This document shows positions 3,184 through 50,964 of a stretch of 64,000 nucleotides of DNA, piece after piece (positions within the stretch are counted from its first letter, which is position 1; each line of letters begins with the position of its first letter). Source of the DNA: Syntrophaceae bacterium (GTDB taxonomy: Bacteria; Desulfobacterota; Desulfomonilia; UBA1062). The notes beneath the pieces were generated by a model, which did not search any database, was not told the DNA's origin, and was given only the letters and a program-made list of their open reading frames with translations. A program made the position numbers and the translations under genes. The stretch spans positions 18,135 through 82,134 of the forward strand of contig JBDKSM010000138.1 of NCBI GenBank assembly GCA_039680665.1. The letters are read 5' to 3'.

Positions 3184-3786
3184 TTGAAAGAATATAAAAA
3201 AAAACGTTTTAAGCCGGAGATTCGCAGGGCGCAGATCGTTGAAGCGACCAAGGAATTGATCCTTGAAAGAGGACTGGCCTGGGCTTCGGTGATCAGGATA
3301 TCCAAAGCCTTGGGTATAAGCCAGGCGACGCTCTATTACCATTTCAAGAGTCGGCGTGAGATCCTGCTGGAGACCTTGTCATCGATTGTCAATGAGAGCA
3401 TCCTTAAGGTTTTGCCGGTGCGACCGGCTGAAAATGCCGAAGATTTCATACGACAGGCCGCGCGCAGCGTTTATGAATTGACGCTGGCCGATCCCCGGCT
3501 TTCGCGCTTGATTTTCGAGTTCGTCTGCGCGCCGCCCACCGAAGATTTGCGTGAAGAGATACAGCTGATATTCTCAAGCTCCATCGGTATGATCGAAGAG
3601 GCCGTCCGGCAAGGTATCCGCGAGGGGCTCTTCAAAGACGATCTCGATGTGACCGTGGTGGCATGGGAGATCGCCTCCCTGGGTATTGCGCTGAATATCG
3701 GCATCATGGTGGAAATGCCCAACTTCCTCTCCATGGAACAGGCCCTGAGCGCCGTCGAACGGATACTTCAAGCCATAAAAAGATAA
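3184..3786 (+). CDS. TetR/AcrR family transcriptional regulator (TTG start)
   Basis: N-terminal TetR HTH (AQIVEATKELILERGLAWASVIRISKALGISQATLYYHF). About 200 aa. Confidence 0.8.
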   Translation: MKEYKKKRFKPEIRRAQIVEATKELILERGLAWASVIRISKALGISQATLYYHFKSRREILLETLSSIVNESILKVLPVRPAENAEDFIRQAARSVYELTLADPRLSRLIFEFVCAPPTEDLREEIQLIFSSSIGMIEEAVRQGIREGLFKDDLDVTVVAWEIASLGIALNIGIMVEMPNFLSMEQALSAVERILQAIKR

Positions 3787-3894
3787 GGGCATGGGTGTGC
3801 CACGCTTCAGGTGATTGTTTGTCTAAGGACTTACCTTCGCGCCGCTACGCCAAAGGGCTGTGCGTTGGGGCCTGGCGCATGCGTCCGGAGAGCC

Positions 3895-8346: not shown

Positions 8347-9594
8347 ATGGGAAAGAGGATGCATTGGCGCTGTAAAAATAATAGGATAAGATTCGGAGTA
8401 TTGGTTTGCCTGGTTGGGGTTGCGATTCTGGCTTTGCAATCACCCGCGCTGGCATATGTTTATAAATGGAATGCCGAGCCCCCCATGCTCGCCAACGACC
8501 CGGAATGGAATAAAGTAAAGACCCTGTGGCGCAATCATGCCGGAGGCAAGAATCTGGACGAGATCATCGTCATTCTCACCAATCTCAAAAGCAAATATCC
8601 GGATAAAATCGAGGTCTACTTATGTTTGGCCAAGGCGTATAATCTACACGCCTGGTATTTCGGCAAGGACAAACGCGGATATTTCGAAAAAGGGGAGATG
8701 TGTGCCGTCCAGGCCTGTAAAATGCAGACTGCCAACCCATATGCCATCCGCGCACTCGTCGAGGCATTGGTATTTAACCGCGACAGGAACTATATCTTTT
8801 CCCATTACGGCGAGTATCTCAAATCCGTGGCGCCCATGCAAGAAGCCTACGGTGAGGTGCTGCCGGAGATGGCGCAATACCCGGAATGGAACGCCTTCCT
8901 GCCGCTTTGGCAGGCACGGATCGATATGGAAAAGGCCAAGGCCGCGGCGGCGCTGGCCGAAAAAATGGCCCAGGCCCACCCCCAGGATGCCTTGGCCCAA
9001 GTCTGGGCCGCGCGGGTGTACTATTACATCGGCGAGGTTAATACCTCACTGAAGGAGCATGATAAGAAGGCCATCCCCAATTACGAAAAAGGCATTGCCT
9101 ATGCCGGAAAAGCGTTGAAGCTCGATCCCCAATACGTGCCCGCGAATCACTGGTATGTGTTGAATCTGGCGCGGTCCATCCAGTTTACAAGTTTGATGAA
9201 CAAGGCACGCTATCTCATGGATCTCTTGCACCCCGCGCTTTTATGCGCCAGAGAGGATGTCGGTTACTTCTACTTCAATATATTGGACATCGTCGGCACC
9301 ATGATCACCTACGGCGGCTGGGTAACGGAGAAAGGCATGAAGATGGTTGGCATCAGCGTGGACATGATCACGAATGGCCTTGAGCTGGCCGAGATGCTTC
9401 ACCCGGATTACGATTACCTGCCATATTGCCACGCCGATGTTCTGGCTTACAAGGGCAAGAAGAAGGAGGCCATGGCGATACTCGAGAGGGTTCTGGCCCG
9501 CAATCCGGATATTAACAATCTGATCCCGGAGAATCATAACTATCAGCGCGAGGCCAGGATGCTTTATGAGGCCATACAGCAGGGCAAGCGTTAA
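8347..9594 (+). CDS. secreted hypothetical protein, TPR-like helical repeats
   Basis: Start chosen at ATG 8347 (GAGGAGGG RBS). Signal peptide (MGKRMHWRCKNNRIRFGVLVCLVGVAILALQSPALA). Helical-repeat composition. No recognisable catalytic motif. Confidence 0.5.
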   Translation: MGKRMHWRCKNNRIRFGVLVCLVGVAILALQSPALAYVYKWNAEPPMLANDPEWNKVKTLWRNHAGGKNLDEIIVILTNLKSKYPDKIEVYLCLAKAYNLHAWYFGKDKRGYFEKGEMCAVQACKMQTANPYAIRALVEALVFNRDRNYIFSHYGEYLKSVAPMQEAYGEVLPEMAQYPEWNAFLPLWQARIDMEKAKAAAALAEKMAQAHPQDALAQVWAARVYYYIGEVNTSLKEHDKKAIPNYEKGIAYAGKALKLDPQYVPANHWYVLNLARSIQFTSLMNKARYLMDLLHPALLCAREDVGYFYFNILDIVGTMITYGGWVTEKGMKMVGISVDMITNGLELAEMLHPDYDYLPYCHADVLAYKGKKKEAMAILERVLARNPDINNLIPENHNYQREARMLYEAIQQGKR

Positions 9595-9915
9595 TACGGA
9601 TGTCATAAGGAGAGTTTGCTGAATTGCTCAATCATCAGGGCCCGGATGCAACAGGCCGGTATGTCCGGTATGTTTGCTCTGGGCCTTGGTGGTATTTCGC
9701 TCAATCGGTCTTGATCTCTAGGAGTTGAACGAGAACTTTCTGTTTTCGATGATTCGTATGATGATAGGGCCGGGTCGTTGCTAGATGGATTTGAGTTTTT
9801 GGTAATTGCAATTTGCAATATTTCGATGATTCCCCCCCGCTCTTAAGGATTGCCGATCATGATTGCCCATAACCAATTAATATTTTGGAGTAAATATATT
9901 CCCATCTCCCGCACG

Positions 9916-9936
9916 AGCCCTGGCATGAATGGTGCT
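9916..9936 (+). promoter_or_regulatory. sigma-54 (-24/-12) promoter candidate for ech operon
   Basis: aGCCCTGGCATgaatgGTGCt. GG at 9922-9923 and GC at 9934-9935. About 60 nt upstream of echA. 19 of 21 nt identical to the element at 6699-6719. Confidence 0.6.
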
Positions 9937-9995
9937 ATGGGGGTGTAGGTGCCGCTGAAGGCACGGATGCATTCTTAGGAAAAGGGGTACGCACT

Positions 9996-11903
9996 ATGAC
10001 AGCGCTGTTATTTTTGATACTCTTTCCACTCATTCCGGCCGTGCTGCTGTTGGCCGTCAAGCATGACGGCGCGCGCGGTGTCATCACGCGCCTGGCCGTG
10101 GGCGTCATTGTCGCTGCCTCCATCGGGCTGCCCTGGCTCATGAATGCGGGCCTGCCCGTCTATTTCAGCTTCGATGCCGAGTGGGCCGGCAAGGCTATGT
10201 TTTTCATCGAGATCTTCCTGGCCGGGCTGATATTTTTCTTGGGTCTCAAATACAAGCACTATCTGACGTCAGTCCTGATCACCCTGCAGTTCGCGTTGAT
10301 GGCCTGGTATGAGTTCTCCCTGTCAGGTACGGTTACCATTCAACAGCATCTCTTCCTCGACCGCCTCTCGCTCATTATGGCGATCATTATCGGGGTCATC
10401 GGCGGACTCATCTGTGTTTATGCCCTGGGTTACATGCGCGATTTCCATGACCACCACCGCGAAATGCCGGATCGCAGACCATATTTTTTCTTCGTCATGT
10501 TCGTCTTCCTTTCCGCCATGTTCGGGCTGGTCTTCGCCAACAACCTGGTGTGGCTGTTCTTCTTCTGGGAAGTCACAACCTTATGCTCCTTCTTGTTGAT
10601 CGGCTATACCAAGACGGCTGAGGCCACCGCCAATGCCTTCAAGGCCCTGATCATGAACCTGGGCGGCGGCCTGGCCTTTGCCGGAGCCATCGTCTGGTTG
10701 GCTTGGTCGGGCGGTCCCCTTGAGCTCAAGGCCCTTATCGCCTCGCCCCAGGCTATGGTCATGATCCCGGTGGCGCTGCTGTGCTTCGCCGGCATCACCA
10801 AATCGGCCCAGATGCCGTTTTCCTCCTGGCTCTTAGGCGCCATGGTGGCCCCTACGCCGACCTCGGCCCTGCTGCATTCCAGCACCATGGTCAAGGCCGG
10901 TGTTTATCTGGTCCTGCGTCTGGCGCCGGTCCTGGCTGGCAGCTATGTCGGCGCCGCGGTGGCCTTGGTGGGCGGCGTCACCTTTCTGCTGGCGGCCTTC
11001 ATCGCCATCTCGCAGAGCAACGCCAAGAAGGTGCTGGCCTATTCGACCGTATCCAACCTGGGCCTGATCGTCACCTGCGCCGGCGTCGGCACCGCGGCCG
11101 CGGTCTGGGCCGGGATCTTCCTGATCATCTTCCACGCCGTAGCCAAGTCGCTGCTCTTCCTGTGCGTGGGCACGCTGGAGCACCGCATCGGCAGCCGTGA
11201 TATCGAGGACATGGACAACATCCTGATCAAGATGCCCACCCTGGCCGTCATGGTGCTGATCGGCATCGGCGGGATGTTCGTGGCCCCCTTCGGCATGCTC
11301 ATCAGCAAGTGGGCCGCCATCCGGGCCTTTGTCCATGCCGGCCCCGTCATGAGCCCGATCCTGATCCTGCTCCTGGCCTACGGCAGCGCGGTCACGGTCT
11401 TTTTCTGGACCAAGTGGATGGCCAAAATCATGGAGGTCAGCGTGCTGCGCACCGGCCATGATCCGCTGGAAGACGCCATATCGTATGACGAGCGCTTCGC
11501 CCACTGGGCGCATACGGTGCTCACAATCGGCGTCTGCCTGGCCTTCCCGCTCGTATCCAGCCAGCTGGTCGAGCCGTATGTCGCCGAGGTCTTCGGGCAG
11601 GCCGCGGGCATGGAGGCGGGCAATCTCATGCTGACCGGCATCATGGTGGCGCTGATCCTGATCCTGCCGACAATCGCCTTCCCGTATCAGAGGAAGGCCG
11701 GGTATGTCTTCGGCACCGCCTACATGGCAGGACTCAATGAGTATCCGGACCGCATGTATGACGGATCACTCTCGCAGCGCCGCAAGGCCACCTTAAAAAA
11801 TTACTACCTCGCCGGAATCTTCGGCGAAGAAAAATTCATGAAAGTCGGGGTGTTGGCAGGGACCTGCCTGCTGGCACTCATGCTGGGAGCGGCACTCTTA
11901 TGA
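9996..11903 (+). CDS. echA: energy-converting [NiFe] hydrogenase membrane subunit EchA (NuoL/HyfB-like antiporter subunit)
   Basis: 635-aa polytopic membrane protein with NuoL/MnhA-type motifs. First gene of a 6-gene complex-I-like hydrogenase operon. Confidence 0.8.
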   Translation: MTALLFLILFPLIPAVLLLAVKHDGARGVITRLAVGVIVAASIGLPWLMNAGLPVYFSFDAEWAGKAMFFIEIFLAGLIFFLGLKYKHYLTSVLITLQFALMAWYEFSLSGTVTIQQHLFLDRLSLIMAIIIGVIGGLICVYALGYMRDFHDHHREMPDRRPYFFFVMFVFLSAMFGLVFANNLVWLFFFWEVTTLCSFLLIGYTKTAEATANAFKALIMNLGGGLAFAGAIVWLAWSGGPLELKALIASPQAMVMIPVALLCFAGITKSAQMPFSSWLLGAMVAPTPTSALLHSSTMVKAGVYLVLRLAPVLAGSYVGAAVALVGGVTFLLAAFIAISQSNAKKVLAYSTVSNLGLIVTCAGVGTAAAVWAGIFLIIFHAVAKSLLFLCVGTLEHRIGSRDIEDMDNILIKMPTLAVMVLIGIGGMFVAPFGMLISKWAAIRAFVHAGPVMSPILILLLAYGSAVTVFFWTKWMAKIMEVSVLRTGHDPLEDAISYDERFAHWAHTVLTIGVCLAFPLVSSQLVEPYVAEVFGQAAGMEAGNLMLTGIMVALILILPTIAFPYQRKAGYVFGTAYMAGLNEYPDRMYDGSLSQRRKATLKNYYLAGIFGEEKFMKVGVLAGTCLLALMLGAALL

Positions 11904-12760
11904 AAACCATCGCCATCGGTATCGCGTATGTCATACTGGCCCCGGTCATCGGCGGGCTGTTGGTCGGACTGGACCGCATCATCTCGGCGCGTATGCAACG
12001 CAGGGTCGGCCCGCCCATCCTGCAGCCGTTCTATGACATATTCAAGCTCCTCCAGAAGAAGACCGTGGTGGTCAACCGCCTGCAGAACCCTGCTATTTTC
12101 TGCCACCTCTTTTTCATGATCGCCACGGGCTTCTTGTTTTTCGAGGGCAGTGACATCCTTCTGATCATCTTCGTGCTCACGCTTTCCGGGGTCTTCCTGG
12201 TCCTGGCCGCCTCGGCCTCGGGATCGCCCTTCTCGCATATCGGCGCCGAACGCGAGCTCATTCTCATGACGGCCTACGAGCCCATGGTGCTCATGATGCT
12301 GGTCGGCATCTACAAGGTCACGGACAGCTTCCACTTCTACGCCATATTGGAGAGCGCTAAGCCCCTGATCGTTTACCTGCCCGGGATCTTTGTGGGCTTC
12401 CTTTATATCCTGACCATGAAGCTCAGGAAATCGCCCTTCGATATCTCCTATTCGCATCACGCCCACCAGGAGCTGGTCAAGGGCATCATGTCGGATATGT
12501 CGGGTAAGTCCATCGCCATGGTCGAGATCGCGCACTGGTATGAGAACGTCTTCCTCTTAGGCCTTGTCTATCTCTTCTTCGGCTTCTCGCCCGTGCTGGG
12601 TATCGCGGCCGTGATCCTGACCTATGTATTCGAGATCCTTGTTGACAATACCTTCGCCCGTTTCCGCTGGGAGCTCGCCTTCCGCTCGGCCTGGCTGGTA
12701 GCCCTGGTGCTGGGCGGCGGGAACCTGATCGCACTGTACGCCCTGATGGGAGGAGCATGA
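11900..12760 (+). CDS. echB: Ech hydrogenase membrane subunit EchB (NuoH/HycD-like)
   Basis: NuoH-like N-terminus (ARMQRRVGPPILQPFYDIFKLL). 4-nt overlap with echA. Confidence 0.8.
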   Translation: MKTIAIGIAYVILAPVIGGLLVGLDRIISARMQRRVGPPILQPFYDIFKLLQKKTVVVNRLQNPAIFCHLFFMIATGFLFFEGSDILLIIFVLTLSGVFLVLAASASGSPFSHIGAERELILMTAYEPMVLMMLVGIYKVTDSFHFYAILESAKPLIVYLPGIFVGFLYILTMKLRKSPFDISYSHHAHQELVKGIMSDMSGKSIAMVEIAHWYENVFLLGLVYLFFGFSPVLGIAAVILTYVFEILVDNTFARFRWELAFRSAWLVALVLGGGNLIALYALMGGA

Positions 12761-26253: not shown

Positions 26254-28953
26254 TTATTTCGTCTTGGCTTTGAATATGGATGTCAGGGGCTTGGCGGCCT
26301 TTTTGAAGGCAATTCTCAGCTTACGTTTCAACACGCTCTTGATAATCACCGGTTTCAGGTTTTTGAATTCAATATTTTGAGCGTCATATTTTTTTACCAG
26401 TTTGATTGCCTCAAACTTACATTTGGTTGTGCACATTCCGCACCCTACGCACAGGTCTTCATCGACAACCGTAGCGCCGCAGCTCAAGCAACGTTCCGTT
26501 TCTTTCTTTACCTGCTCTTCTGTAAAGGTGCCGCGCAGATCCTTGAAGGTTTTATCGGATCTATCTCCGTCGACATGGGCTGCTCGTTGTCTTGGAAGAC
26601 GATCATACCCTTCGAGATCCACGTTCGCTTTATCAAACGCACGGTAGGCTCTCTTCGTACGGCCCATAACAAGGCTCTGTCCGGGCTGCACGAAGCGGTG
26701 GATCGAGATCGCGCCTTCTTTGCCCAGAGCGATAGCATCAATAGCGAACTTTGGTCCGGTTACGGCATCGCCGCCGGCGAATACATCGGGTTCTCCGGTT
26801 TGGTATGTCTCAGGATCCGCCTTAATGGTCTGGTTGGGATTCAATGCCTGGCTACTTTCTGCAATCAACGTACCCCAATCAATTGCCTGGCCGACCGAGA
26901 TCAAGACCTGATCCGCCTCGACGGTCTTCGTGTCATTTTCATCATATTGGGGGTTAAACCTTTTCTTCTCATCGAAGACGGAAATGCATTTTTTGAATTC
27001 CACACCCGTGACGCGTCCGTTTTCGGCAAGGATACGTTTGGGTCCCCAGGAATTGTTGATGGTGATGCCTTCTGATGTTGCTTCTTCAATTTCTTCGTCC
27101 AGGGCCGGCATTTCTTTCCGGTTTTCCAGACAGTACATAGCAACTTTTGAAGCGCCGACTCGTGTAGCGGCTCTGGCTACATCGATGGCGACGTTACCGC
27201 CGCCGATGACAAGCACGATCCCTTCGAGTTTTGCGCCTTCTCCCAAGTTGACATTCCGTAAGAAATCAACACCGGTGATAACACCTTGGGCATCTTCACC
27301 TTCGATACCGAGCTTTCTGCCCGCCTGGGCTCCGATGGCAAGATAGAAGGCTTTGAACCCCTGAGACCTCAAGTCCTTTAGACTTACATCTTTGCCGACT
27401 TCAACGCCGGTTTTAAACTCAACGCCTAACTCTTTCAAAATGTCGATTTCCGCATGAATGACATCTCGTTCGAGCCTAAAAGAGGGGATGCCGAGTGTCA
27501 GCATGCCGCCGAGCGCTTTTTGTTTTTCAAATACGGTTACCTTATACCCGTCAATAGCCAGGTAGTAAGCACAAGAGAGTCCGGCAGGACCGGCACCGAC
27601 AATGGCAATCTTTTTCCCGTACTGATGTCTTAGCCGTGGCACATAGCGGTGTTCCGCCCTCAGATCCTGTTCCGCGATGAATTTCTTGATATCATCGATG
27701 GCGATTGGATCATCGATGTCGCCTCTGGTACACGCGGATTCACAATATCTCGGGCAGACGCGTCCGCATACGGCCGGGAAAGGATTTTCATGCTTGATGA
27801 GCTCCAGGGCGTCCCGGTATTTTCCCTGGGAGGCCAGCTTGATATATCCCTGAATGCCGATATGGGCAGGACATTCCGCTTTACAGGGACTCGTGCCGGT
27901 AGCGACCACAACCTGTCTGTTCATACGATAATCGGGATTCCATTTGTCCGGGCCCCACTCGGTATTACTGGGAAGCTCTCTTCTCTTTTGTTTCGGCAGA
28001 GGACCTTTGGTGCAGATTTTTTGACCTAATCTCAAAGCATTAACAGGACAGTTTTCAACGCACTCTCCGCAGGCAACGCATTTATCTTTGTCCACCTGTG
28101 CCACGTAGTTGGAACGTACCATATCGGTGTTGTAGAACATCTCGGCCGTTCTTAAAGAAAGGCACCCGCATCCGCAGCAGTTACAGATCGCGTGCGTTTT
28201 CCCGGGACCGTCCGTGTTCGGTATCTGATGTATCAGGCCGTTTTCTTCCGCTCTTTTAATGATTTCAAAGGCCTCTGCACGGGTGATCTCGCGTCCTCTG
28301 CCGGTGCGGATATAGTATTCAGCGGCATGCCCCATCTGAATACACATATCTTCCTTCAGGTGGCCGCAGCCTTCTCCCATGATTTCTCTGGTTGTGCGGC
28401 AGGAACAGTTCGAAACCGAAAATAATGTATTTTCATTCAGGTACTTAGAAACTTCCTCGTATGAGGCCCTTCTCTTTTCCGCCATAATCGATTCTTCGAT
28501 CGGGATAACGCGCATCAAGCCCATGCCGACAGGGAAAATACCGGCCGTCAGCGGGCCTCGTACTCTTCCGTAGGCCTCCATGGCCTCGGCAATTTGCGGA
28601 TACTTTTTAACGTTTTCTATTTTGTTGACCATGCATTCCATGATGCCCGGAATCCAGGTATCATACCAATATTTATCAACACCGTCCTTTTTATTGACAA
28701 AGCAGACGCCGAGGTCCGCCAATGCTTCCAGCTGTTTTGTCGATTCCTCGATGGATTTACCGCACTTGGCGGCAACTTCTTCCGCACTCTGTGGGATACG
28801 GAACTCAAGGACGAGTGCCACTTCCGCCATTTCTTCCGTAACAACGGGCTCCAGAATTCTATATTCCGGATCTTCGGGCTTGATGGCGTCTTTTGCGCCG
28901 CGTTTCTTTTTACTGACCTTATTAGCAAAATCCAATACCTTTTCTTTTGCCAT
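26254..28953 (-). CDS. multi-domain Fe-S flavoprotein: N-terminal Cys-rich domain + GltD/NfnB-like FAD/NAD(P) oxidoreductase core + C-terminal 2x[4Fe-4S] ferredoxin (YgfK-like architecture)
   Basis: 899 aa. GltD-type helical Fe-S segment (VCGRVCPRYCESACTRG). GAGPAGLSCAYYL and a second GGGNVAIDVA dinucleotide motif. Ferredoxin CxxCxxCxxxC at both ends. CNCCGCGC cluster. Confidence 0.65.
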   Translation of the reverse strand: MAKEKVLDFANKVSKKKRGAKDAIKPEDPEYRILEPVVTEEMAEVALVLEFRIPQSAEEVAAKCGKSIEESTKQLEALADLGVCFVNKKDGVDKYWYDTWIPGIMECMVNKIENVKKYPQIAEAMEAYGRVRGPLTAGIFPVGMGLMRVIPIEESIMAEKRRASYEEVSKYLNENTLFSVSNCSCRTTREIMGEGCGHLKEDMCIQMGHAAEYYIRTGRGREITRAEAFEIIKRAEENGLIHQIPNTDGPGKTHAICNCCGCGCLSLRTAEMFYNTDMVRSNYVAQVDKDKCVACGECVENCPVNALRLGQKICTKGPLPKQKRRELPSNTEWGPDKWNPDYRMNRQVVVATGTSPCKAECPAHIGIQGYIKLASQGKYRDALELIKHENPFPAVCGRVCPRYCESACTRGDIDDPIAIDDIKKFIAEQDLRAEHRYVPRLRHQYGKKIAIVGAGPAGLSCAYYLAIDGYKVTVFEKQKALGGMLTLGIPSFRLERDVIHAEIDILKELGVEFKTGVEVGKDVSLKDLRSQGFKAFYLAIGAQAGRKLGIEGEDAQGVITGVDFLRNVNLGEGAKLEGIVLVIGGGNVAIDVARAATRVGASKVAMYCLENRKEMPALDEEIEEATSEGITINNSWGPKRILAENGRVTGVEFKKCISVFDEKKRFNPQYDENDTKTVEADQVLISVGQAIDWGTLIAESSQALNPNQTIKADPETYQTGEPDVFAGGDAVTGPKFAIDAIALGKEGAISIHRFVQPGQSLVMGRTKRAYRAFDKANVDLEGYDRLPRQRAAHVDGDRSDKTFKDLRGTFTEEQVKKETERCLSCGATVVDEDLCVGCGMCTTKCKFEAIKLVKKYDAQNIEFKNLKPVIIKSVLKRKLRIAFKKAAKPLTSIFKAKTK

Positions 28954-31301: not shown

Positions 31302-31930
31302 TCACGCAGTACCCGGTGTCCCCTCAGGCAGCGAAGGCGCTCCGGCCACGTTCGCGTTGCGCTTCAAGTCCTCATAGAAGATGGTCAGGCAGGTCTGGAA
31401 ATACGGCACGATCCAGAGAAACCCGATCCCCAGAGTCAGTATGCCCAAGAAGGTCCACCCGATGAACCGGCATCCCAGGCAGAAGAGCCTCCATTTATGC
31501 CCGCGCATGAGTTCCTTGCTTTGCGTAATAGCCGCCAACCCCTCCATGCCGGGATTGTCCGCCAGGATGAAGAAGGTCATGGCATAGCTCAAGGCCGCGA
31601 TGATGCCCGGTATGATGAGCAGCAGAGTCCAGAGCAGGGTGAAGAGCGTGCGCAGCAGATAGGCCAGGAAGGCATTGACGAAACGCCGGAAGCCCTCGAA
31701 AAGCTGGGAGAGCCGCATATCCCGCGTGCGCACAAAGCTTAAGTACACCAGACAGTAACCCAGCATCAGCGGCCCTGAGATCACGATGCCGGCCAGCCAG
31801 CCGATCACCGGGATGCAGTTCAGCAGGAAGATGATCGAGAAATACACGGCCGAAGCCAGGATCGGCAGCTTCCAGTTCCCTTCAACATCGCACGGGCCTG
31901 GCTGGTTGTCTCGGCATTCAACAAGGCCAT
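31302..31930 (-). CDS. DUF975-family membrane protein, apparent -1 frameshift near N-terminus
   Basis: ATG 31930 with GGAGGTG RBS encodes MALLNAETTSQARAMLKG. The DUF975-like continuation (NWKLPILASAVYF...) is in another frame. The frames join at a GGGAA/AAC homopolymer around 31876-31880. Confidence 0.5.
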
Positions 31931-31955
31931 GTGTCCACCTCCTTATTTTTTGAAT

Positions 31956-31986
31956 CCACTGGCAAGGCTGAAGCCTTTGCCAGTGG
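31956..31986. other. near-perfect 13-bp stem-loop between ankyrin and DUF975 genes
   Basis: CCACTGGCAAGGC-tgaa-GCCTTTGCCAGTGG. Flanked by a T-run on the plus strand. Confidence 0.5.
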
Positions 31987-32069
31987 CACACACGCATCTC
32001 ATTGTAACAGGGCCACCCGCCGTCCCGATCTCCTTCCTCTTTCTGCGACAACAAGATAGGAGAATGCCA

Positions 32070-33938
32070 TTATTGTGTTTTGTAGTTTTCCAAGAGCTTC
32101 ACCACTTTTGAATTTGATAATGCACTACTTTTTGCCATATCCAGCGGAGTTTCACCACTATTGGTCCTTAAATTCGGATTGGCCCCTTGCCTTAAAAGAA
32201 AATCAACTTTAGCTAGATTTCCGTGAAGGGCTGCATATGCCAAGGCTGTGTGACCAGATTCGTCTTGGGCATTGATTTCAGCTCCTCTTTCAAGCAACAT
32301 TTTTAAGCATTCGAGATCATGGCTCCGAGCTGTTGCTTGTATCAATATTGTCGAACCCTGGGGTGTTCTGGCATTGGGATCCGCCCCATTATCTAAGAAG
32401 AGCCGAATACCATTACAGTTCAAGTACCCCTGGGCGACACCTAAAGCTAATGCTGTATAGCCTTCTTTGTCCTTTGCGTTGATTGCAGAACCTCTTTCCA
32501 AGAGCAGACCTATAACTTCGTTTAATCCTTTTAAGGACGCCCACATTAATGCTGTCCGACCATTTGCTGACTTTGCATTGATGACTGCTCCATTATCTAG
32601 CAATAACCTGACCTTTCCAACTGTGCGAGTTTGTTCTGAGGTGTAAGAGTAAGGTGGCAGTACCATCAACACCGTCAGTCCATCTTTGTCCTTCACATTT
32701 GGATCGGCCCCTCTTTTAAGCAACAAACTGACGATTTCTTGTTTGCCCTGTTCGACAGCAGCTATAAGTGCCGTTCTGCCATCTCTGTTGGTTGTATGAA
32801 TGTTTGCACCCCTGTCCAATAGCAAGTTTACATTTTCGGCATTCTCTGATCTTGAAGCAATCATCAATGGAGTTATTCCATTCTTTCCTGATGCATTGAC
32901 ATCGGCTCCCTTGTCCAGCAACAGCTTAATGCTGTCGGCTCGTCCACTGGCTGCAAATATCAATGCAGTCGCACCATCATTTTGTTTTGCGTTGACATTG
33001 GCCCCCTTTTCCAGCAGTAGCCTGACAACTTCGGGGCCGTCAGGCCTGCCAGCCGTAACTGCATAATTCAAGGCATTCCATTCATTCTGGTCCTTTGTAT
33101 TGACATCTGCTCCTTTGTCCAGCAACAGCCTAATCAGGTCGGTTGATCCCCCAGTAATCGCAAACATCAACGCAGTCGAACCGTCTTCCCGCATTGCATT
33201 GACATATGCACCTTTTTCAAGCAGCAAACGTACGATGCTGACATTACCCCATAAGGTGGCAGAAATTAGCGCAGTCTCCCCATCCTTTGGTGTTACATTG
33301 ACTTTGGCATTATGGTTTAGAAGTAATCGTATTAAATCTTCCTTATTCTGTCTCACGGCAATCATCAATGCCGTTCGGCCTTTTGCATCTTGTGCATTAA
33401 CATCAGCACCTCGGCTGATCATCTTGGCAATTTGTTTTGGCTCCGCATCTTTTTCGATTGCGTAGACAAGAGGGGGCTTTCTTTCTTTCGCTATGTTTTC
33501 AACAAACTTCCCAGTATCAGTATTGAAAAACATAGTCGTCTTTTCGCTTGGACAGCACAAGGCATCGCTACTCTTGTACTCCAGCAGTTCGACTACCAGT
33601 TTTTGTCCGGCAAATTTCTTCACCGAACCATATCGAAGGTCGATACTGTCGCTGAATATCCATTTCCCGGACCGTTTAATAAATAAGGCAGCAGAGCAAT
33701 GCACATTCGCTGGGTTACTTGCTCCCTCATTGGCCCCACCCGGCAAATTCTCATCTTCGCAATAATATTCCACCCGCTGTGTTGCGTCAGCGTTGCAAAA
33801 AGCCTTCCGTTCGATAATCAGTTTGTTGTTTTTGAAGTATTCCGCAATAGACTTTGGTACTGATTGGCCGCCAGAATGGGCTAATGTCGATTGGGCAAAA
33901 ATAGCAAACAGTAACACGCTTGGAATGAATATTTTCAC
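32070..33938 (-). CDS. secreted ankyrin-repeat protein (about 13 ANK repeats) with a unique N-terminal Cys-containing domain
   Basis: Signal peptide (MKIFIPSVLLFAIFAQSTLA). Repeated (GxTALmxAaxxGhxxxVxxLLxxGAdvN) units. Gene is visibly more AT-rich than its flanks. Confidence 0.85.
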   Translation of the reverse strand: MKIFIPSVLLFAIFAQSTLAHSGGQSVPKSIAEYFKNNKLIIERKAFCNADATQRVEYYCEDENLPGGANEGASNPANVHCSAALFIKRSGKWIFSDSIDLRYGSVKKFAGQKLVVELLEYKSSDALCCPSEKTTMFFNTDTGKFVENIAKERKPPLVYAIEKDAEPKQIAKMISRGADVNAQDAKGRTALMIAVRQNKEDLIRLLLNHNAKVNVTPKDGETALISATLWGNVSIVRLLLEKGAYVNAMREDGSTALMFAITGGSTDLIRLLLDKGADVNTKDQNEWNALNYAVTAGRPDGPEVVRLLLEKGANVNAKQNDGATALIFAASGRADSIKLLLDKGADVNASGKNGITPLMIASRSENAENVNLLLDRGANIHTTNRDGRTALIAAVEQGKQEIVSLLLKRGADPNVKDKDGLTVLMVLPPYSYTSEQTRTVGKVRLLLDNGAVINAKSANGRTALMWASLKGLNEVIGLLLERGSAINAKDKEGYTALALGVAQGYLNCNGIRLFLDNGADPNARTPQGSTILIQATARSHDLECLKMLLERGAEINAQDESGHTALAYAALHGNLAKVDFLLRQGANPNLRTNSGETPLDMAKSSALSNSKVVKLLENYKTQ

Positions 33939-34083
33939 GTCAAACTCCGTTTTCTATTTTGGCCATCAGAATATTTTTCCTTGAACGCGCCCTGCGGGTA
34001 GCCTTGACAAGCGATAATGGAACAGGCCCTTTTCTTGGTGCCATGGGCAAAGACAACGTCTTGCCTGTGGAGAATGTGATTCT

Positions 34084-34461
34084 TTATGCCACATTCTTGA
34101 TGGTCCTGTACGGTTGAATGAGCACCTCCGCCGAGATTCCTAAGCCGGTATGAAGGCTTCTGATCATCTCCATGGTGAGCGAACGCTTTCGGTTTAGGAT
34201 TTCTGAAACACGCGTTCGGCTCCCGATGAACGGCTCCAGATCATGGCGAGAAAGCCCACGGCTTTCCATATGATACAGGATGGCTTCGATGGGATCAGGG
34301 AGCGGGACAGCATACTGTTTTTCCTCATAGGCTTCCGCAAGGGTGGTCAGAACCTCGAGGCGATCGGCTTGCTCGGTGCCGGACTTTGCGTCAAGGAGCC
34401 GTTCAATTTCTTTGAGCGCGGCCTCATAATCGGTTTCTGTCTTTATGGGTTTAATCTTCAT
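34084..34461 (-). CDS. HigA-family antitoxin-like HTH protein (no cognate toxin gene adjacent)
   Basis: Colinear similarity to HigA (N-terminal ...YEAALKEIERLLD; C-terminal HTH RTRVSEILNRKRSLTMEMIRSLHTGLGISAEVLI). Start uncertain (ATG 34461 or TTG 34512). Confidence 0.65.
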   Translation of the reverse strand: MKIKPIKTETDYEAALKEIERLLDAKSGTEQADRLEVLTTLAEAYEEKQYAVPLPDPIEAILYHMESRGLSRHDLEPFIGSRTRVSEILNRKRSLTMEMIRSLHTGLGISAEVLIQPYRTIKNVA

Positions 34462-34613
34462 TTCAATATTGCTGATAAGTATGCCCTGATCCCAAATGGG
34501 GAGCAAGTGCAAACTTCACTGTGTGCTCTTTTAGGAAACCGTGGGGTTGGGTATGAGCTTTTGCGGTTTTGCTTTAAATATGATACGCATCTCTTATAAC
34601 CGTGTAATGGAGT

Positions 34614-35168
34614 GTGCCTATGGCCAAAGCAAAACCTGCGGTACTGTCATTGGGCAAGCGCGTCAAGGAAGCGCGGTCGCGTTTAGGAATCAGTCTGGAT
34701 GAGCTGGCACAGCGGAGCGGCTACACCGCCAAGGTCATCAGCGCCATAGAGGAGGAGCAGATGGTCCCGCCCGTGGCCTTGATCCTCCAGTTGAGCCGCA
34801 TCCTCAAGCTCGACATGGAGTCCGATGATTCAGCCGGGACCACGGCTACGCGCTTGCGGGCCAGGAGCCACAAGCGGCGCGTGGACTCCTATGCCTATCA
34901 GGCCCTGACCAGGCCCAAGACGGACATGCACTTGAGGGCCTATCAGGTGACGATCGAACCCAATACGGAACATAAAGGCGTTGAGTACCATCACGAGGGC
35001 GAGGAGTTCGTCTACGTGCTCGAAGGCGAGCTTGTAATCCAGATCGGTGAAAATATGAACACCGTCAAGAAAGGCCAGAGCATCCATTTCGATTCCTCGC
35101 TGCATCACAAGCTCAATAACCCTTCATCCCAGACGGCCATGCTCCTGGTGGTCATTTACGTACCGTAA
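34614..35168 (+). CDS. XRE-family HTH + cupin domain transcriptional regulator
   Basis: N-terminal HTH (LGKRVKEARSRLGISLDELAQRSGY). C-terminal cupin motifs (HHEGEEFVYVLEG...SIHF). Confidence 0.8.
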   Translation: MPMAKAKPAVLSLGKRVKEARSRLGISLDELAQRSGYTAKVISAIEEEQMVPPVALILQLSRILKLDMESDDSAGTTATRLRARSHKRRVDSYAYQALTRPKTDMHLRAYQVTIEPNTEHKGVEYHHEGEEFVYVLEGELVIQIGENMNTVKKGQSIHFDSSLHHKLNNPSSQTAMLLVVIYVP

Positions 35169-35178
35169 AGGAAAACCC

Positions 35179-36318
35179 ATGTCTTTCCCCATTACCACGG
35201 AACAAGAAATGATCCGGCTCATGGCGCACGATTTCAGCCGCAAGGAGCTGGAGCCCTTTGCCGCTCAGTGGGACAAGAGTGAGCACTTCCCTTTGGAGGC
35301 GGTGCGGAAGATGGGAGAGCTCGGCCTGTTGGGCATGCTGGTCCCCTTCGAATACGGCGGCACCGCGGCCGGGGCGGTGAGCTATTCGCTGGCCCTGCAG
35401 GAGATCGCCTATGCCTGCGCCTCGACCGCGGTGACCATGTCCGTGACCACCCTTTCCCAGGACCCGATCCTGAAATTCGGCAGCGAGGTACAGAAGCAGA
35501 AATACCTGGCGCCTCTGGCGCGAGGGGAATACCTGGGGGCCTTTGCCATCACGGAACCGGGGGCGGGCTCCGACCCGGGCGGCATGACCATGCGGGCTGA
35601 AGCTAAGGGCGGGTATTATCTGGTCAACGGCACCAAGGTCTTCATCACCAACGGCGGCTATGCCGACGTGGTGATCCTGGTGGCCCGCACCACGCCGGAA
35701 AAGGCCAACCGGGGGCTGTCGGCCTTTATCGTCGAGAAGGGCCTGCCCGGGTTTTCCATTGGGCATAAAGAGGACAAGATGGGCTTGCGCGCCTCCAACA
35801 CCGTGGAGCTGGTGTTCGAGGACTGCCGCATCCCGGCTGAAAATATCCTGGGCCGGGAGGGTCTGGGGTTCAAGATCGCCATGCTGGCCTTGGACAGCGG
35901 GAGGATCGGGATCGCCTCACAATCCATAGGGATTGCGCGCGCCTGCCTGGATGAGGCCCTTGCCTATGCCAAGACGCGCCGGCAGTTCGGCCGCGCCATC
36001 GGCGCTTTCCAGGCCGTGCAATGGATGATCGCGGATACCGCCACCCAGATCGAGGCCGCCCGGCTTCTGACCCTGTCGGCGGCGAGCCTTAAGGACCAAG
36101 GGCTGCCATATACCAAGGAGGCCTCCATGGCCAAGCTCTTTGCCTCGGAGATGTGCAACCAGGCCGCTTACAAGGCCCTGCAGATCCATGGCGGCTACGG
36201 CTACATGAAGGAGTTCAAGATCGAGCGGCTCTACCGTGATGCACGCGTGACCGCCATCTACGAAGGCACCTCCGAGATCCAGCGGCTCGTGATCGCACGG
36301 GAAGTGAGCGGCGGCTAG
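35179..36318 (+). CDS. acyl-CoA dehydrogenase (short/branched-chain type)
   Basis: ACAD family motifs throughout (FAITEPGAGSDPGG...; C-terminal QIHGGYGY). Confidence 0.9.
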   Translation: MSFPITTEQEMIRLMAHDFSRKELEPFAAQWDKSEHFPLEAVRKMGELGLLGMLVPFEYGGTAAGAVSYSLALQEIAYACASTAVTMSVTTLSQDPILKFGSEVQKQKYLAPLARGEYLGAFAITEPGAGSDPGGMTMRAEAKGGYYLVNGTKVFITNGGYADVVILVARTTPEKANRGLSAFIVEKGLPGFSIGHKEDKMGLRASNTVELVFEDCRIPAENILGREGLGFKIAMLALDSGRIGIASQSIGIARACLDEALAYAKTRRQFGRAIGAFQAVQWMIADTATQIEAARLLTLSAASLKDQGLPYTKEASMAKLFASEMCNQAAYKALQIHGGYGYMKEFKIERLYRDARVTAIYEGTSEIQRLVIAREVSGG

Positions 36319-36411: not shown

Positions 36412-38061
36412 TTACCAGGACGCGGCGCTGGCGATGAAGCACCCGCCTCCGGATGAGCCGCCGCCGGAATCGTCGGTCGCCGCCTGTGAGGCCCCTTTGC
36501 CCGTACCGCTTTCCGTCTCGGCATCAACCGCAGCCGCGGTCGCGACATCGGCGGCTTCTACCTTGGCCAGCCAGGCGCCCACTTTAGGAAAGACCTCAGA
36601 GGGCGTCTTCTTGCCGATTACCAGGTCGACATGGGCCGTGCCTTCGATGGTGTACCATTCATCCAGGCTATGGGGGGTCTTTTTCGATATGATATCCTGG
36701 TAGGCGTAGAGCGGGTTGACGAGCGAGCCCGAGTCGGAGAGACAGGCGATTATCGGGACCGTGACACGGTCCATGTGTTCGCTGTAGTAATAGTAACCGT
36801 CACGGCCTGGGTCCGGGGTTGGAGGTATAATCGTGCCCTGGTTCTCGATCCCGTTCATCCAGAATTCCCGTATGGTTTGGTTCAAGCCGTTGTCCATGTA
36901 ATGTGCCAGACAGCGCACGCTGCAGCCGGAGAGGACATAGCGCGCCATGAAATCCTGCATGTAGCGGTTGGTGTCCTGCATGTACCAGAAGTCCAGATAC
37001 CCGAACAGACTGTTTTCCATGCCGTTTATGAGGTAGATCTGATCCCAGGTATTGATGGCGCCGAACAGGACCTGCTCGATCGTTACCGTCACTTCGGTGG
37101 GGAAGAGCTGGAAGAGGCTCTGGGAGGCCACGTCCAGGGGCAGATAAAACCGTGAGCTCATGAGCGACCAGAAGATGTCGGTGTTCAAGTAGGACGGCAG
37201 CGGCGGCCTCCCGGCAGGGTCCAGGGCGATAAAGCCTTTGATATCGGCGTTGCGAGCGATTGCCAGGAGCGGATCGGCCTTGACGTGCGGCTGGTAGCCT
37301 TCCTCGCCCGCGGCCTTATAGAACGCGGTCTTATCCACCTGGCCGTTATAATCGAGATAGCAGCCCTGCAAGTAGGCATAGCTGACCAGGCCCCCGGTGC
37401 TGTGTCCGCCGATGTACATACGTTTGCCGGTGAGAGTTTTGACCTTGGCTATTGCCGCCGGGACATCAAGCGTGGCCCAGGTGTCCAGGGTGTTGAGCGT
37501 GCATTTATTGTCGCCTTGGCTGCGCATAGTAAGGCGGCCGGTATCGCGGTAATTGGCGAACCAGGGGTCGTAGCCCTGAAGCCAGAGGTAATGCGCCATG
37601 CTGTAGTAGCGCATCTTGTCGGCCTGGATGGAGGGCTCGAGCACCGGTTGGCCGTCCTTGTACAGCGCTTTCCCCTGGGCGTCCTTGGCAATGGCCCAGT
37701 CGGCTACCGCATCGGGCAGGTTCAGCCGGCTGTAGGAGTTCTGCATGACCTCGGGTGTACACGCAAGATACTGGTTCATGTTTTCCACGATGCCTGTGAA
37801 GAGCAGCACCGGGGTGCCCTGGTCGCGGAAGGCCGAGTTCGCATCAGGGCGATAGCGGTACAGCATGATGGTGGTGCCGTCATCGGCCGGTGTGCTGTAG
37901 ATGCCCTGAGGATCATACGGCACGCTGGAGGCCTGCGCCGTCTGCGGCATCATGGACATCCCGAGGCAGAAGGCCAGGACCAGAGTTGGAACCAAGTATA
38001 ATTTCCCGTAAACCTCCTCTTTGAGAATAAACCAAATGTTAAACAAAACGTCGCCAACCAT
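36412..38061 (-). CDS. secreted alpha/beta-hydrolase (lipase/esterase-like) paralog A with low-complexity linker and C-terminal G-x-CFI tail
   Basis: GGHSTGG nucleophile elbow. Conserved DPGRDGYYYY and TAHVDLV (His) blocks. Paralog of 56265-57758. Start uncertain (ATG 38061 with G-rich RBS, or upstream ATG 38145). Confidence 0.7.
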   Translation of the reverse strand: MVGDVLFNIWFILKEEVYGKLYLVPTLVLAFCLGMSMMPQTAQASSVPYDPQGIYSTPADDGTTIMLYRYRPDANSAFRDQGTPVLLFTGIVENMNQYLACTPEVMQNSYSRLNLPDAVADWAIAKDAQGKALYKDGQPVLEPSIQADKMRYYSMAHYLWLQGYDPWFANYRDTGRLTMRSQGDNKCTLNTLDTWATLDVPAAIAKVKTLTGKRMYIGGHSTGGLVSYAYLQGCYLDYNGQVDKTAFYKAAGEEGYQPHVKADPLLAIARNADIKGFIALDPAGRPPLPSYLNTDIFWSLMSSRFYLPLDVASQSLFQLFPTEVTVTIEQVLFGAINTWDQIYLINGMENSLFGYLDFWYMQDTNRYMQDFMARYVLSGCSVRCLAHYMDNGLNQTIREFWMNGIENQGTIIPPTPDPGRDGYYYYSEHMDRVTVPIIACLSDSGSLVNPLYAYQDIISKKTPHSLDEWYTIEGTAHVDLVIGKKTPSEVFPKVGAWLAKVEAADVATAAAVDAETESGTGKGASQAATDDSGGGSSGGGCFIASAASW

Positions 38062-38082
38062 ATGATCCCCCCTGTAAAAAAA

Positions 38083-38098
38083 GATTTGCATGCAAATC
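38083..38098. promoter_or_regulatory. 16-bp perfect palindrome upstream of lipase paralog A
   Basis: GATTTGCATGCAAATC, about 22 nt upstream of ATG 38061 on the minus strand. Confidence 0.35.
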
Positions 38099-38461
38099 GG
38101 AACAATATATGTTTTATTATTTAGCAATACCTGTACCAAGGCCAAAAACGGTGTTGCTCACCGGATCGCACGCGCTGCTGGTCAATTTAAAAACACTTGT
38201 GTAATTAACGCTAAATCATTCGAGCTTACCCATTGTGTAAATACAAATTCAAGACCGGACATGTTCTGATTTGGCTGAAAAAATGAGCCCCTCCAGAGTG
38301 GTAAAGGGATAATAATTTACCGAACGGTAATAATTTACACTGCCCTTGGCAAAAAAGTACCCTTTAAGTTTTGTAAAGTCACGGATCTGGTTATTGACTT
38401 GGAGCCCGACATGACGGCATGCTTTGTCTCTGGTACGGTACTCAATCGCACGGAGGATTGC

Positions 38462-50398: not shown

Positions 50399-50833
50399 CT
50401 AAAACTCAAAGTCGAGATTGGCCTTCACAATATCCGCCATAACGATGTTTTCCGTAACGCCGTTAACTTCCAGACGCAGGTTTTCACCTTCCACGCCTTG
50501 CAGCACTCCGCACCTGCTCCCCTGCTTCAGGATCAGCTTCACCCGTCGGCCGGTAAAGTGTTCGTAATCGGTGCGGCTTGTCAGCCGGCGGGTAAGACCC
50601 GGGGAAGAAACCTCGAGGCGGTAGCGGCCCGGTATATAATCCAGCGTGTCCAGGGTGAGACCCACGCGGCGGGTCACGGCCACACAGTCTTCGAGCGTCA
50701 CCCCCTTGGGCGTATCAATGGTCAGCCGCAAGAGCCCCTGGCTGAAGCTCACCTCGATGAGATCGTATCCCATCGAGGCGATTTCGCCGCCAACAGCGCC
50801 ACGCACTTTTTCAGTGATCTCTTCCGCTCGCAT
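50399..50833 (-). CDS. rimP: ribosome maturation factor RimP
   Basis: Start taken at MRAEEITEKV. The longer listed ORF runs into the tRNA gene. Confidence 0.8.
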   Translation of the reverse strand: MRAEEITEKVRGAVGGEIASMGYDLIEVSFSQGLLRLTIDTPKGVTLEDCVAVTRRVGLTLDTLDYIPGRYRLEVSSPGLTRRLTSRTDYEHFTGRRVKLILKQGSRCGVLQGVEGENLRLEVNGVTENIVMADIVKANLDFEF

Positions 50834-50888
50834 ATGAAACAAAAAAGTGGGCAAAAGCCCACTTCTCCCTCCCTCGCGCTCGCATTTC

Positions 50889-50964
50889 TGGAGCGGGCAA
50901 CGGGGTTCGAACCCGCGACATTCAGCTTGGGAAGCTGACACTCTACCAGCTGAGCTATGCCCGC
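50889..50964 (-). tRNA. tRNA-Gly (anticodon CCC)
   Basis: 76 nt. 7-bp acceptor stem GCGGGCA/TGCCCGC. Anticodon loop TTCCCAA. T-loop TTCGAAC. Encoded 3' CCA. Confidence 0.85.

Follow-up and report, generated by a model that had tools for sequence, protein, structure and literature searches.

Bd3460 of Bdellovibrio bacteriovorus is a periplasmic ankyrin (ANK) protein of 23 kDa that serves as a self-protection protein and inhibitor; it consists of some five repeats without an extra domain, and its gene adjoins that of the target endopeptidase (PMC4686830). HigA of the E. coli K-12-type HigB/HigA pair (5IFG; a PF09907 HigB and a COG5499-type HigA) combines a helical N-terminal region with a helix-turn-helix (HTH) domain at the C-terminus, and antitoxins that occur as orphans can serve as anti-addiction modules or as regulators (PMC7354431). 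A HigA-like domain is also found in the PD-lambda-2 system, whose component B is a HigA-peptidase fusion of 402 positions that acts together with a HigB-like component A and a component C (PMC9519451). Strain-variable islets and hotspots, finally, combine fixed conserved flanks with low-GC cargo that alternates between relatives, and contain genes derived from toxin-antitoxin (TA) systems and insertion sequences (IS). The locus studied here, which lies in a stretch of 64 kb (the window) from a Syntrophaceae MAG, shares these last features and holds a gene for a putatively exported ANK protein (ank) beside an orphan higA. In our preferred reading, to which we assign a probability of roughly 0.6, the site is a variable slot that contains an older orphan higA and a separately acquired ank.

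The slot is the intergenic region between a gene pair for an XRE-cupin regulator and an acyl-CoA dehydrogenase (ACAD) on its right (34614-36318, plus strand; Pfam), which is kept in 80 Syntrophales-type loci, and a DUF975 membrane-protein gene on its left (31302-31930, minus strand; Pfam DUF975). In this Syntrophaceae lineage the XRE-cupin/ACAD-DUF975 slot is hypervariable and layered: the four haplotypes, i.e. that of the window and those of the relatives L092, L012 and L103 (86-90% nucleotide identity), all differ in content. Three independent assemblies show the window arrangement as well (99.98-100% identity), so that it is not an assembly artefact. In L092 the order is GntR, an intact DUF975, 2.76 kb of unrelated low-GC cargo (a lipoprotein and a PDC-S45-like protease) and XRE-cupin. 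In L012 GntR and XRE-cupin are separated by a gap of 187 nt, which clearly arose by deletion since it keeps a C-terminal remnant of DUF975 (PEGRVYTT-stop). L103 is collinear with the window at 90% across higA up to the blastn breakpoint at 33994, departs from it 55 nt short of ank, and continues past this higA/ank junction with an IS91-family transposase and a tyrosine recombinase; the L103 contig stops inside the IS, and ank could sit beyond it. As the four haplotypes are about equidistant, parsimony alone cannot separate a gain in the window lineage from a loss elsewhere. DUF975 was considered as a part of the island and ruled out on the basis of its native composition (GC3 0.765) and the intact L092 orthologue (209 aa); the window copy is frameshifted by a 1-nt deletion at about 31875.

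Two independently bounded pieces occupy the slot in the window. The ank-specific segment (31942-33993; 2052 nt, 45.3% GC) is delimited by the blastn breakpoints of L092 (31941) and L103 (33994); it is missing from the orthologous slot in L092 and L012 and begins past the end of the L103 collinearity. The higA segment (33994 to about 34545; 552 nt, 50.7% GC) is shared with L103 at about 90% nucleotide identity, where higA is an orphan too, and is absent in L092 and L012; from about 34546 on, the intergenic region is conserved in all four haplotypes. Of the features by which a classical genomic island is recognised, the locus shows deviant composition and variable presence in close relatives, and has no integrase, tRNA target or flanking direct repeats in the window. 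It differs from known strain-variable islets in that integrase, tRNA, direct repeat and attC are all absent from its surroundings in the window and its units comprise one gene each. Within 16 kb of the island there is no tRNA (the sole one in the window is tRNA-Gly at 50889-50964), Pfam found no integrase domain in the neighbouring genes, and there are no Rfam elements nearby. Direct repeats of at least 11 nt do not flank the locus, and shorter direct and inverted matches occur at chance level, with none bracketing the segments. A search for integron attC sites (R'' RYYYAAC ... R' GTTRRRY, 45-160 nt) yielded no pair on either strand of 31850-34650. An IS91 remnant in the window was rejected as well, there being no homology to the IS region of L103. 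The original prediction that neither integrase nor tRNA flanks the island is thus upheld for the window, a transposase and recombinase being present in the relative L103 only, and the IS91-family element at the same junction in L103 is the only lead on the delivery mechanism.

The ank gene (32070-33938, minus strand; 622 aa, GTG start; assigned by its ORF, the Pfam Ank families and a repeat parse) has a GC content of 0.449, the lowest among all 1869-nt intervals of the 64 kb (mean 0.565, sd 0.033). Its deviance is located at synonymous sites, since GC3 is low (0.427, z=-4.05; background 0.739±0.077) but GC1 and GC2 lie in the normal range. The log-likelihood of the synonymous codons (z=-4.3) deviates too, and the tetranucleotide distance has its peak within the window at 32001-34000 (z=+5.3). 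The original prediction had called the gene AT-rich by eye and foreign, and had proposed such profiles and a comparison with relatives as its own test. Both turned out in favour of acquisition: ank is compositionally foreign, and at the orthologous site the readable relatives have other cargo (L092) or a deletion (L012). The segment 31942-33993 is thus probably, judging from these sequence comparisons, a single gene acquired horizontally from a lower-GC donor. Ahead of the gene lies a leader of 55 nt (33939-33993, minus strand) with a GGAG ribosome-binding site at 33945-33948, 6 nt ahead of the GTG; 46 nt of this leader are conserved together with the gene in its closest homologue (L109; start of homology at 33984). 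On the other side, 84 nt downstream of the stop codon and 14 nt within the segment boundary, there is a hairpin that is unique in the window (31956-31986, minus strand; 13-bp stem without U-tract, dG -23.6 kcal/mol, z=-3.3), which possibly forms the 3' end of the transcript or stabilises it. Promoter and terminator scans gave matches no more frequent than in shuffled sequences.

Homologues of ank occupy three unrelated contexts. The L109 homologue (74% nucleotide identity over 33984-32746) has a different context, has a GC3 of 0.546 in a genome of about 50% GC and looks compositionally native; it adjoins a TA-like pair (DUF6036 and a 99-aa ORF). The L105 homologue (49% identical) has a GC3 of 0.414 against 0.66-0.78 around it and lies in a housekeeping neighbourhood of a genome of about 56% GC. 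Given this recurrence of a low GC3, part of the compositional signal could stem from the repeat-gene family itself and not from recent transfer. Neither L105 nor L109 has a higA next to its ank homologue, and, in contrast to known immunity/inhibitor pairs, none of the three contexts has a cognate target gene next to ank.

The N-terminus of the ank protein (MKIFIPSVLLFAIFAQSTLA, followed by HS; 33879-33938, minus strand) fits a Sec/SPI signal as judged by inspection: it starts with MK, has a hydrophobic core of 14 aa (mean KD 2.2) and offers a cleavage site between TLA and HS, and the homologues likewise begin with hydrophobic leaders. A Sec signal takes a protein to the periplasm or the envelope. 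The C-terminal three quarters (aa ~156-622; 32073-33473, minus strand) consist of ANK repeats, and the protein belongs to the Pfam Ank clan (Ank_2 8.6e-104 and 340.8 bits against a cut-off of 27.3; Ank 270 bits). The repeat parse recovers the 13 repeats counted originally, with 12 G-x-T-A-L cores at a spacing of 32-40 aa and one divergent repeat, and adds an N-terminal capping half-repeat.

Between the signal and the repeats lies an N-domain (33474-33878, minus strand; assigned by its family) that had been described as a Cys-containing domain of 170 aa that could not be placed. Its Cys content stands, its length is about 135 aa (aa 21-155), and it can be placed in a small family (35 clusters out of 1.84 billion representatives) in which 12 of 27 members match PF14041 (LppP/LprE) at E<=0.1, the best at 1.4e-5. 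With 15.7 bits (E 0.016) the N-domain of the window stays below the PF14041 cut-off of 25 and is, at the level of sequence, a distant relative rather than a member. The matches of the family align over the half that bears a conserved D-[AP]-L-C-C-P-S, and the predicted location is extracytoplasmic, as in LppP/LprE. The window protein differs from LppP/LprE in its putative SPI-type site: there is no lipobox (L-x-x-C) and no Cys near the predicted cleavage, the first being at aa 48. It has in addition a conserved Cys-bracketed loop (C-x-DEN-x-PGG-x-NEGASNPANV-x-C) and the fusion to ANK repeats, which recurs in 7 of the 10 long family members; standalone secreted forms of about 150 aa exist as well. 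Conserved in the family are C60, C81, C128 and C129 but not C48, and the conserved Cys pairs would fit an oxidising extracytoplasmic location. The AF2 model of the N-domain is all-beta (pLDDT 90.7) and matched no solved structure. A search of PLSDB plasmids, INPHARED phages and IMG/VR did not recover the N-domain, and no transfer vehicle was found.

The second gene, higA (34084-34461, minus strand; 125 aa, ATG start), lies on the same strand, both ORFs being as first described. Its product scores 23.3 bits for Pfam HTH_3 (cut-off 23), matches the solved E. coli HigA (5IFG/5YCL, E~3e-6, aa 44-115) and has more than 7900 homologues, many of them annotated as HigA; by these matches it belongs to the E. 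coli K-12 type of HigA, in which the Xre-type HTH is C-terminal. Its GC3 (0.587, z=-2) is intermediate. Compared with L103 the gene has a dN/dS of 0.15, which suggests that it is kept under purifying selection and argues that it is functional. The protein is 77-83% identical to the HigAs of Geobacter sp. AOG1 (L006) and of L104, each encoded just downstream of a 97-aa HigB (PF09907) that lies 14 nt upstream of higA or overlaps it. Homologues are present on 402 plasmid records, mostly next to HigB, and another orphan occurs in L009; in none of L006, L009 and L104 does an ank lie alongside.

The window differs from the E. coli pair in that it contains neither a HigB gene nor a remnant of one, the orphan state being common to L103, and the adjacent PF09907 HigB that characterises a type II HigBA module is absent. 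With the Geobacter and L104 HigBs as queries, tblastn gave no match around higA on the strand where a HigB would be read, and no significant one across the 64 kb. The free space around the gene, i.e. 152 nt upstream and 145 nt downstream, leaves no room for a HigB. A HigB remnant in the divergent higA/XRE-cupin intergenic region (34462-34613, 152 nt) was rejected: tblastn was empty on the right strand and a three-frame reading gave no convincing C-terminal HigB motif. The same region contains a promoter-like site (34608-34580, minus strand), which is a consensus match only, from a scan that did not exceed shuffled sequences. Two small ORFs, of 38 aa (33940-34056) and 42 aa (33966-34094), were considered as tiny toxins and rejected, being basic and not hydrophobic; the 38-aa ORF is moreover not conserved, as it straddles the L103 breakpoint. 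The original view of an orphan HigA-family protein, with no space for a toxin on either side, agrees with our results. As part of the preferred reading, higA probably derives from a PF09907-HigB/HigA module, is older than ank and lost its toxin without trace.

Adjacency and composition could also be taken to mean that ank and higA arrived as one island and work together, with HigA as the regulator of ank or as a stabilising TA remnant. The two genes are indeed co-oriented, 145 nt apart and both below the GC content of the flanks, and the closest ank homologue also lies beside a TA-like pair. Against this, each gene has boundaries of its own (L103 has higA and 90 nt downstream of it in common with the window and diverges before ank), GC3 is unlike in the two genes (0.587 versus 0.427), and homologues of each occur without the other, those of ank in L105 and L109 and those of higA in L006, L009 and L104. 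We consider a joint arrival improbable, and neither the single island of the original prediction nor a functional link between the two genes is supported. It is likewise unlikely that ank is ancestral at this site and was lost or replaced in the relatives, its low GC3 being a family trait caused by repeat-gene codon choice or low expression. The equally low GC3 of the L105 homologue in its housekeeping neighbourhood would agree with such a history, as would the deletion in L012 and the rough equidistance of the haplotypes, which leaves polarity unproven. The L109 gene, however, is native in its genome, so that a low GC3 is no inherent property of the family; the homologues sit in unrelated contexts, the sparseness of the family fits patchy transfer, and the nucleotide homology with L109 starts at most 10 nt from the segment boundary.

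Two further readings concern function. That the slot is a hotspot for anti-phage or competition defence, in which HigA would be a TA-derived part and the ANK protein would resemble PDC-M72A, is suggested by PADLOC (HigA to PD-Lambda-2_B, 1.6e-46; ANK to PDC-M72A, 2.5e-89; the L092 protease to PDC-S45, 5e-35, covering nearly the full length) and by a fixed site with varying content, which is typical of defence islands. The likeness to PD-lambda-2 is, however, confined to the HigA-like domain of component B: the match spans only positions 1-120 of 402, and instead of the three-gene set the window has a HigA without peptidase domain or partner genes A and C. The ANK matches are driven by the repeats, in multiple stretches, and phage sensing in the cytoplasm would be unexpected for an exported protein that carries a domain of the disulfide type; we regard this reading as very unlikely. 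The original prediction had named host- or partner-interaction effectors as typical of secreted bacterial ANK proteins. The second reading is accordingly that of an ANK effector secreted past the outer membrane and directed at eukaryotes such as grazing protists. Bacterial ANK proteins are enriched in eukaryote-associated organisms, and the best NCBIfam likenesses are Legionella Dot/Icm Ank effectors (AnkH, AnkY and others), but the best of these T4SS Ank scores reaches 187.7 where the cut-off is 600, and covers repeats only. Moreover, Dot/Icm effectors rely on T4SS signals instead of a Sec signal peptide, the window of this Syntrophaceae MAG shows no secretion system, and the LppP/LprE relatives of the N-domain are envelope lipoproteins. 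With a putative Sec signal that would lead to the periplasm or envelope, such a role is highly improbable, and a host-directed effector is not supported.

Under the preferred reading of a variable slot with two separately bounded genes, the ank protein may bind other proteins stoichiometrically in the periplasm or the cell envelope. By analogy with Bd3460, which offers a functional model of a periplasmic ANK inhibitor, its long solenoid could clamp an envelope protein or an incoming one and so be an inhibitor, an immunity-like factor or an adaptor, with the N-domain offering a second binding or anchoring surface. The window protein differs from Bd3460 in its 13-14 repeats, its LppP/LprE-like N-domain and the absence of an adjoining candidate target gene: a gene beside the inhibited enzyme, as in Bd3460, was not found, the neighbours in the window, L105 and L109 being different from each other and including no secreted hydrolase. 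HigA would most likely work alone, as an HTH repressor and/or as an in-trans neutraliser of HigBs from mobile elements (anti-addiction), and ank and higA would adjoin only through their common recombination-prone slot. A more far-reaching proposal, which we put forward as doubtful, is that LppP/LprE-like plus ANK proteins form an undescribed, mobile, single-gene family of periplasmic immunity or anti-effector proteins against envelope-targeting toxins or lytic enzymes, that the slot serves syntrophic Desulfobacterota as a hotspot for competition or defence at which such cargo is exchanged, and that HigA is a resident anti-addiction guard. The incoming toxins or enzymes would then be those of competitors, predators or phages, and the PDC-S45-like protease and lipoprotein of L092 would be a further example of cargo.

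As a strain-variable islet the locus is genuine, though of a fairly common sort. What it shows, at nucleotide resolution, is variation at one site in a free-living syntroph by the swapping in and out of single genes, together with an antitoxin that appears to have persisted under selection long after the loss of its toxin. A very rare family of extracytoplasmic domains is defined as well, with two conserved Cys motifs, a confident all-beta model and repeated fusion to ANK repeats. Without a ligand this would amount to ordinary strain-level accessory content; if its ligand were found, the protein would stand beside Bd3460 as a second periplasmic ankyrin protein of known mechanism.

Both open reading frames of the original prediction are present on the minus strand, namely ank (32070-33938), which encodes a 622-aa ankyrin-repeat protein from a GTG start with a GGAG ribosome-binding site 6 nt upstream, and higA (34084-34461), which encodes a HigA-family antitoxin of 125 aa from an ATG, with a possible extension to a TTG at 34512. 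The low GC content that had been estimated by eye was borne out by GC, codon and tetranucleotide profiles, in which ank is the extreme of the window: its GC (0.449) is the minimum among 1869-nt windows of the 64 kb (mean 0.565, sd 0.033), its GC3 is 0.427 versus 0.739±0.077 in 41 background ORFs (z=-4.05), its synonymous-codon log-likelihood lies at z=-4.3, and the tetranucleotide distance is highest at 32001-34000 (z=+5.3). GC1 and GC2 are normal, i.e. the shift concerns synonymous sites. The GC3 of higA is intermediate (0.587) and that of the DUF975 gene native-looking (0.765). Since the identical arrangement occurs on a 229-kb JGI contig and two Logan contigs (99.98-100% identity), it is not an assembly artefact. 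Low GC3 alone is no marker of acquisition in this genome, because an 899-aa Fer4/Pyr_redox (glutamate-synthase-like) gene at 26254-28953 (GC3 0.547, z=-2.5) is conserved throughout the close relatives (90-94% aa identity).

A backbone of PFL, Fer4/Pyr_redox, DUF5692, GntR, slot, XRE-cupin, ACAD and hyp577 is common to four relatives (86-90% nt identity), and the content of the slot differs in each of them; a search with the flanking XRE-cupin gene returns Syntrophales, Smithellaceae and Syntrophus MAGs. The relative L103 aligns collinearly with the window (90% identity) between positions 36974 and 33994, through the XRE-cupin gene, the intergenic region, higA (86% identical and likewise orphan) and 90 nt past it, and leaves the homology 55 nt before the ank start. 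Past this breakpoint (3374-5378), directly downstream of the orphan higA and where the window has ank, it carries an IS91-family (Zn_Tnp_IS91/Y2_Tnp) transposase and a tyrosine recombinase, and the contig ends inside the element. In L092 homology with the window stops at 31941 and restarts at ~34546; an intact 209-aa DUF975 gene is followed there by 2.76 kb of different low-GC (40-50%) cargo (9427-12190), encoding a 452-aa lipoprotein-like ORF with an LSTGC lipobox and a weakly BamE-like C-terminus, and a 250-aa Trypsin_2 protease that matches the PADLOC single-gene defence candidate PDC-S45 at 5e-35. In L012 the gap between GntR and XRE-cupin is only 187 nt and at 9160-9200 still encodes, in frame, a remnant of the C-terminal end of DUF975 (…SPEGRVYTT*; PEGRVYTT* versus PEGTPGTA*), which makes this seemingly empty slot a deletion derivative. 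Judged by these alignments, the slot between its conserved flanks is hypervariable. As L103 carries higA but diverges before ank, and L092 breaks at both outer positions, the predicted single island with an orphan antitoxin resolves into two layers with separate boundaries, one holding higA (33994-~34545; the higA segment) and the other ank (31942-33993; the ank segment), each an independent occupant of a slot that is prone to swapping.

The DUF975 gene (31302-32054) is a native flank and not acquired. Relative to L092 it has a 1-nt deletion at ~31875 (codon 19), identical in three independent assemblies, so that the native ATG (31930) now yields a 36-aa ORF only; the called ORF of 250 aa starts at a TTG (32054) and has an out-of-frame, non-homologous N-terminus. 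On the other side, a perfect 11-nt inverted repeat (GGTTTTGCTTT at 34565-34575, AAAGCAAAACC at 34626-34636) flanks the XRE-cupin start codon within a stretch conserved in all haplotypes and may be an operator. A 577-aa ORF (36412-38145), kept in relatives at 89-92% aa identity, has no Pfam domain; its N-terminus includes a hydrophobic segment, and its C-terminal tail, rich in Gly and Ser and with GGGCFIASAASW at the end, may be sorting-signal-like. The only tRNA or Rfam match in the window is a tRNA-Gly(CCC) (50889-50964), which overlaps the end of an ORF (50399-50941) that was listed mechanically.

The ank segment is foreign in composition and missing from the two relatives readable at the slot, and the homologue closest to it stands in another genome, in unrelated surroundings. 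This homologue (P0124/P0158, 378 aa, 68% aa identity) lies in L109, from a genome of ~50% GC, with PHO4/HAD genes on one side and a TA-like DUF6036 pair on the other, and its GC3 (0.546) agrees with that of its neighbours; the nucleotide homology (74%) spans window positions 33984 to 32746, so that its start is within 10 nt of where L103 diverges. The pair after it (4680-5373) consists of overlapping genes for DUF6036 (146 aa) and a 99-aa protein, and is toxin-antitoxin-like. A 49%-identical homologue of 620 aa (L105) has housekeeping genes as neighbours, in a further genome, of ~56% GC. The family is extremely sparse, turns up in three unrelated contexts and differs in composition from its high-GC hosts, all of which is consistent with horizontal transfer, more than once, from lineages of lower GC. 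The main caveat is that low GC3 could partly be a trait of the ank family, as the L105 homologue is also deviant (GC3 0.414 versus 0.66-0.78). Acquisition of ank is supported, gain in this lineage being more probable than loss in the relatives. As predicted, no tRNA or integrase was found at the ank/higA region, nor any attC site or flanking repeats that would reveal a vehicle, and searches of plasmids, phages and viral contigs gave no N-domain. Close to its 3' boundary the ank segment contains a strong hairpin (31956-31986; dG -23.6, z=-3.3).

HigA was upheld both as a HigA-family protein and as an orphan: its C-terminal HTH matches the solved E. coli HigA structures 5IFG and 5YCL, and neither HigB nor a HigB remnant is detectable in the window, with only 152 nt separating higA from the divergent XRE-cupin gene. 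The family is very large and highly conserved (>7900 matches, 75-90% identical across Syntrophales and Geobacter), and an identical protein is annotated in NCBI from a Syntrophaceae MAG. Homologues lie directly downstream of a 97-aa PF09907 HigB in Geobacter sp. AOG1 and at locus L104, and occur in 402 plasmid records, usually together with HigB. The dN/dS of 0.15 (window versus L103) indicates that the orphan gene is maintained under selection. A second, independent orphan copy of the family (82% identity; 3001-3378 in L008-L010), with no HigB within 6.4 kb, adjoins a Phd/ParE pair, a TIR-domain ORF and a DDE transposase. A PD-lambda-2 system is not indicated, as the PADLOC match to PD-lambda-2_B, a HigA-peptidase fusion (PMC9519451), spans only the HigA-like third. 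The probable role of HigA is that of a stand-alone repressor, of an anti-addiction antitoxin, or of both; either role has been discussed for orphan antitoxins (PMC7354431).

The ank protein has an exported-type architecture: a leader that is Sec/SPI-like by inspection (MKIFIPSVLLFAIFAQSTLA, followed by HS), an N-domain, an ANK capping half-repeat and 13 repeats to the C-terminus. The predicted N-terminal domain exists, though with ~135 aa (aa 21-155) instead of 170, and it has no Pfam match above threshold; yet it is not without relatives. A word-indexed search of 5.8 billion proteins gave only three, fragmentary ones, and exhaustive profile searching of 1.84 billion representatives yielded 35 clusters. 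In about half of these the domain stands alone, as a ~150-aa protein that brings its own signal peptide (P0002 is a complete gene of this type); fusion to ANK repeats occurs in 7 of the 10 longer members. Conserved are a Cys-bracketed loop (C-x-DEN-x-PGG-x-NEGASNPANV-x-C) and D-[AP]-L-C-C-P-S. Because 12 of 27 members independently match PF14041 (LppP/LprE lipoprotein; best E 1.4e-5), the N-domain is assigned, by profile similarity, to a distant branch of this extracytoplasmic family; membership of the window protein itself was rejected (15.7 bits versus a cut-off of 25), and unlike LppP/LprE it has no lipobox. AlphaFold2 modelled the domain confidently as all-beta (27-sequence alignment, pLDDT 90.7, pTM 0.83), and Foldseek against the PDB gave partial propeller-blade-like matches only.

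The ANK protein would bind proteins in the periplasm or envelope, for which the best precedent is Bd3460 of Bdellovibrio, an ANK protein that inhibits DD-endopeptidases in the periplasm (PMC4686830); its target gene is adjacent, whereas none lies beside ank. Accessory islet, exported ANK protein and orphan HigA are all of already known kinds, and the rare LppP/LprE-like plus ANK architecture is the one modestly novel element of the locus.
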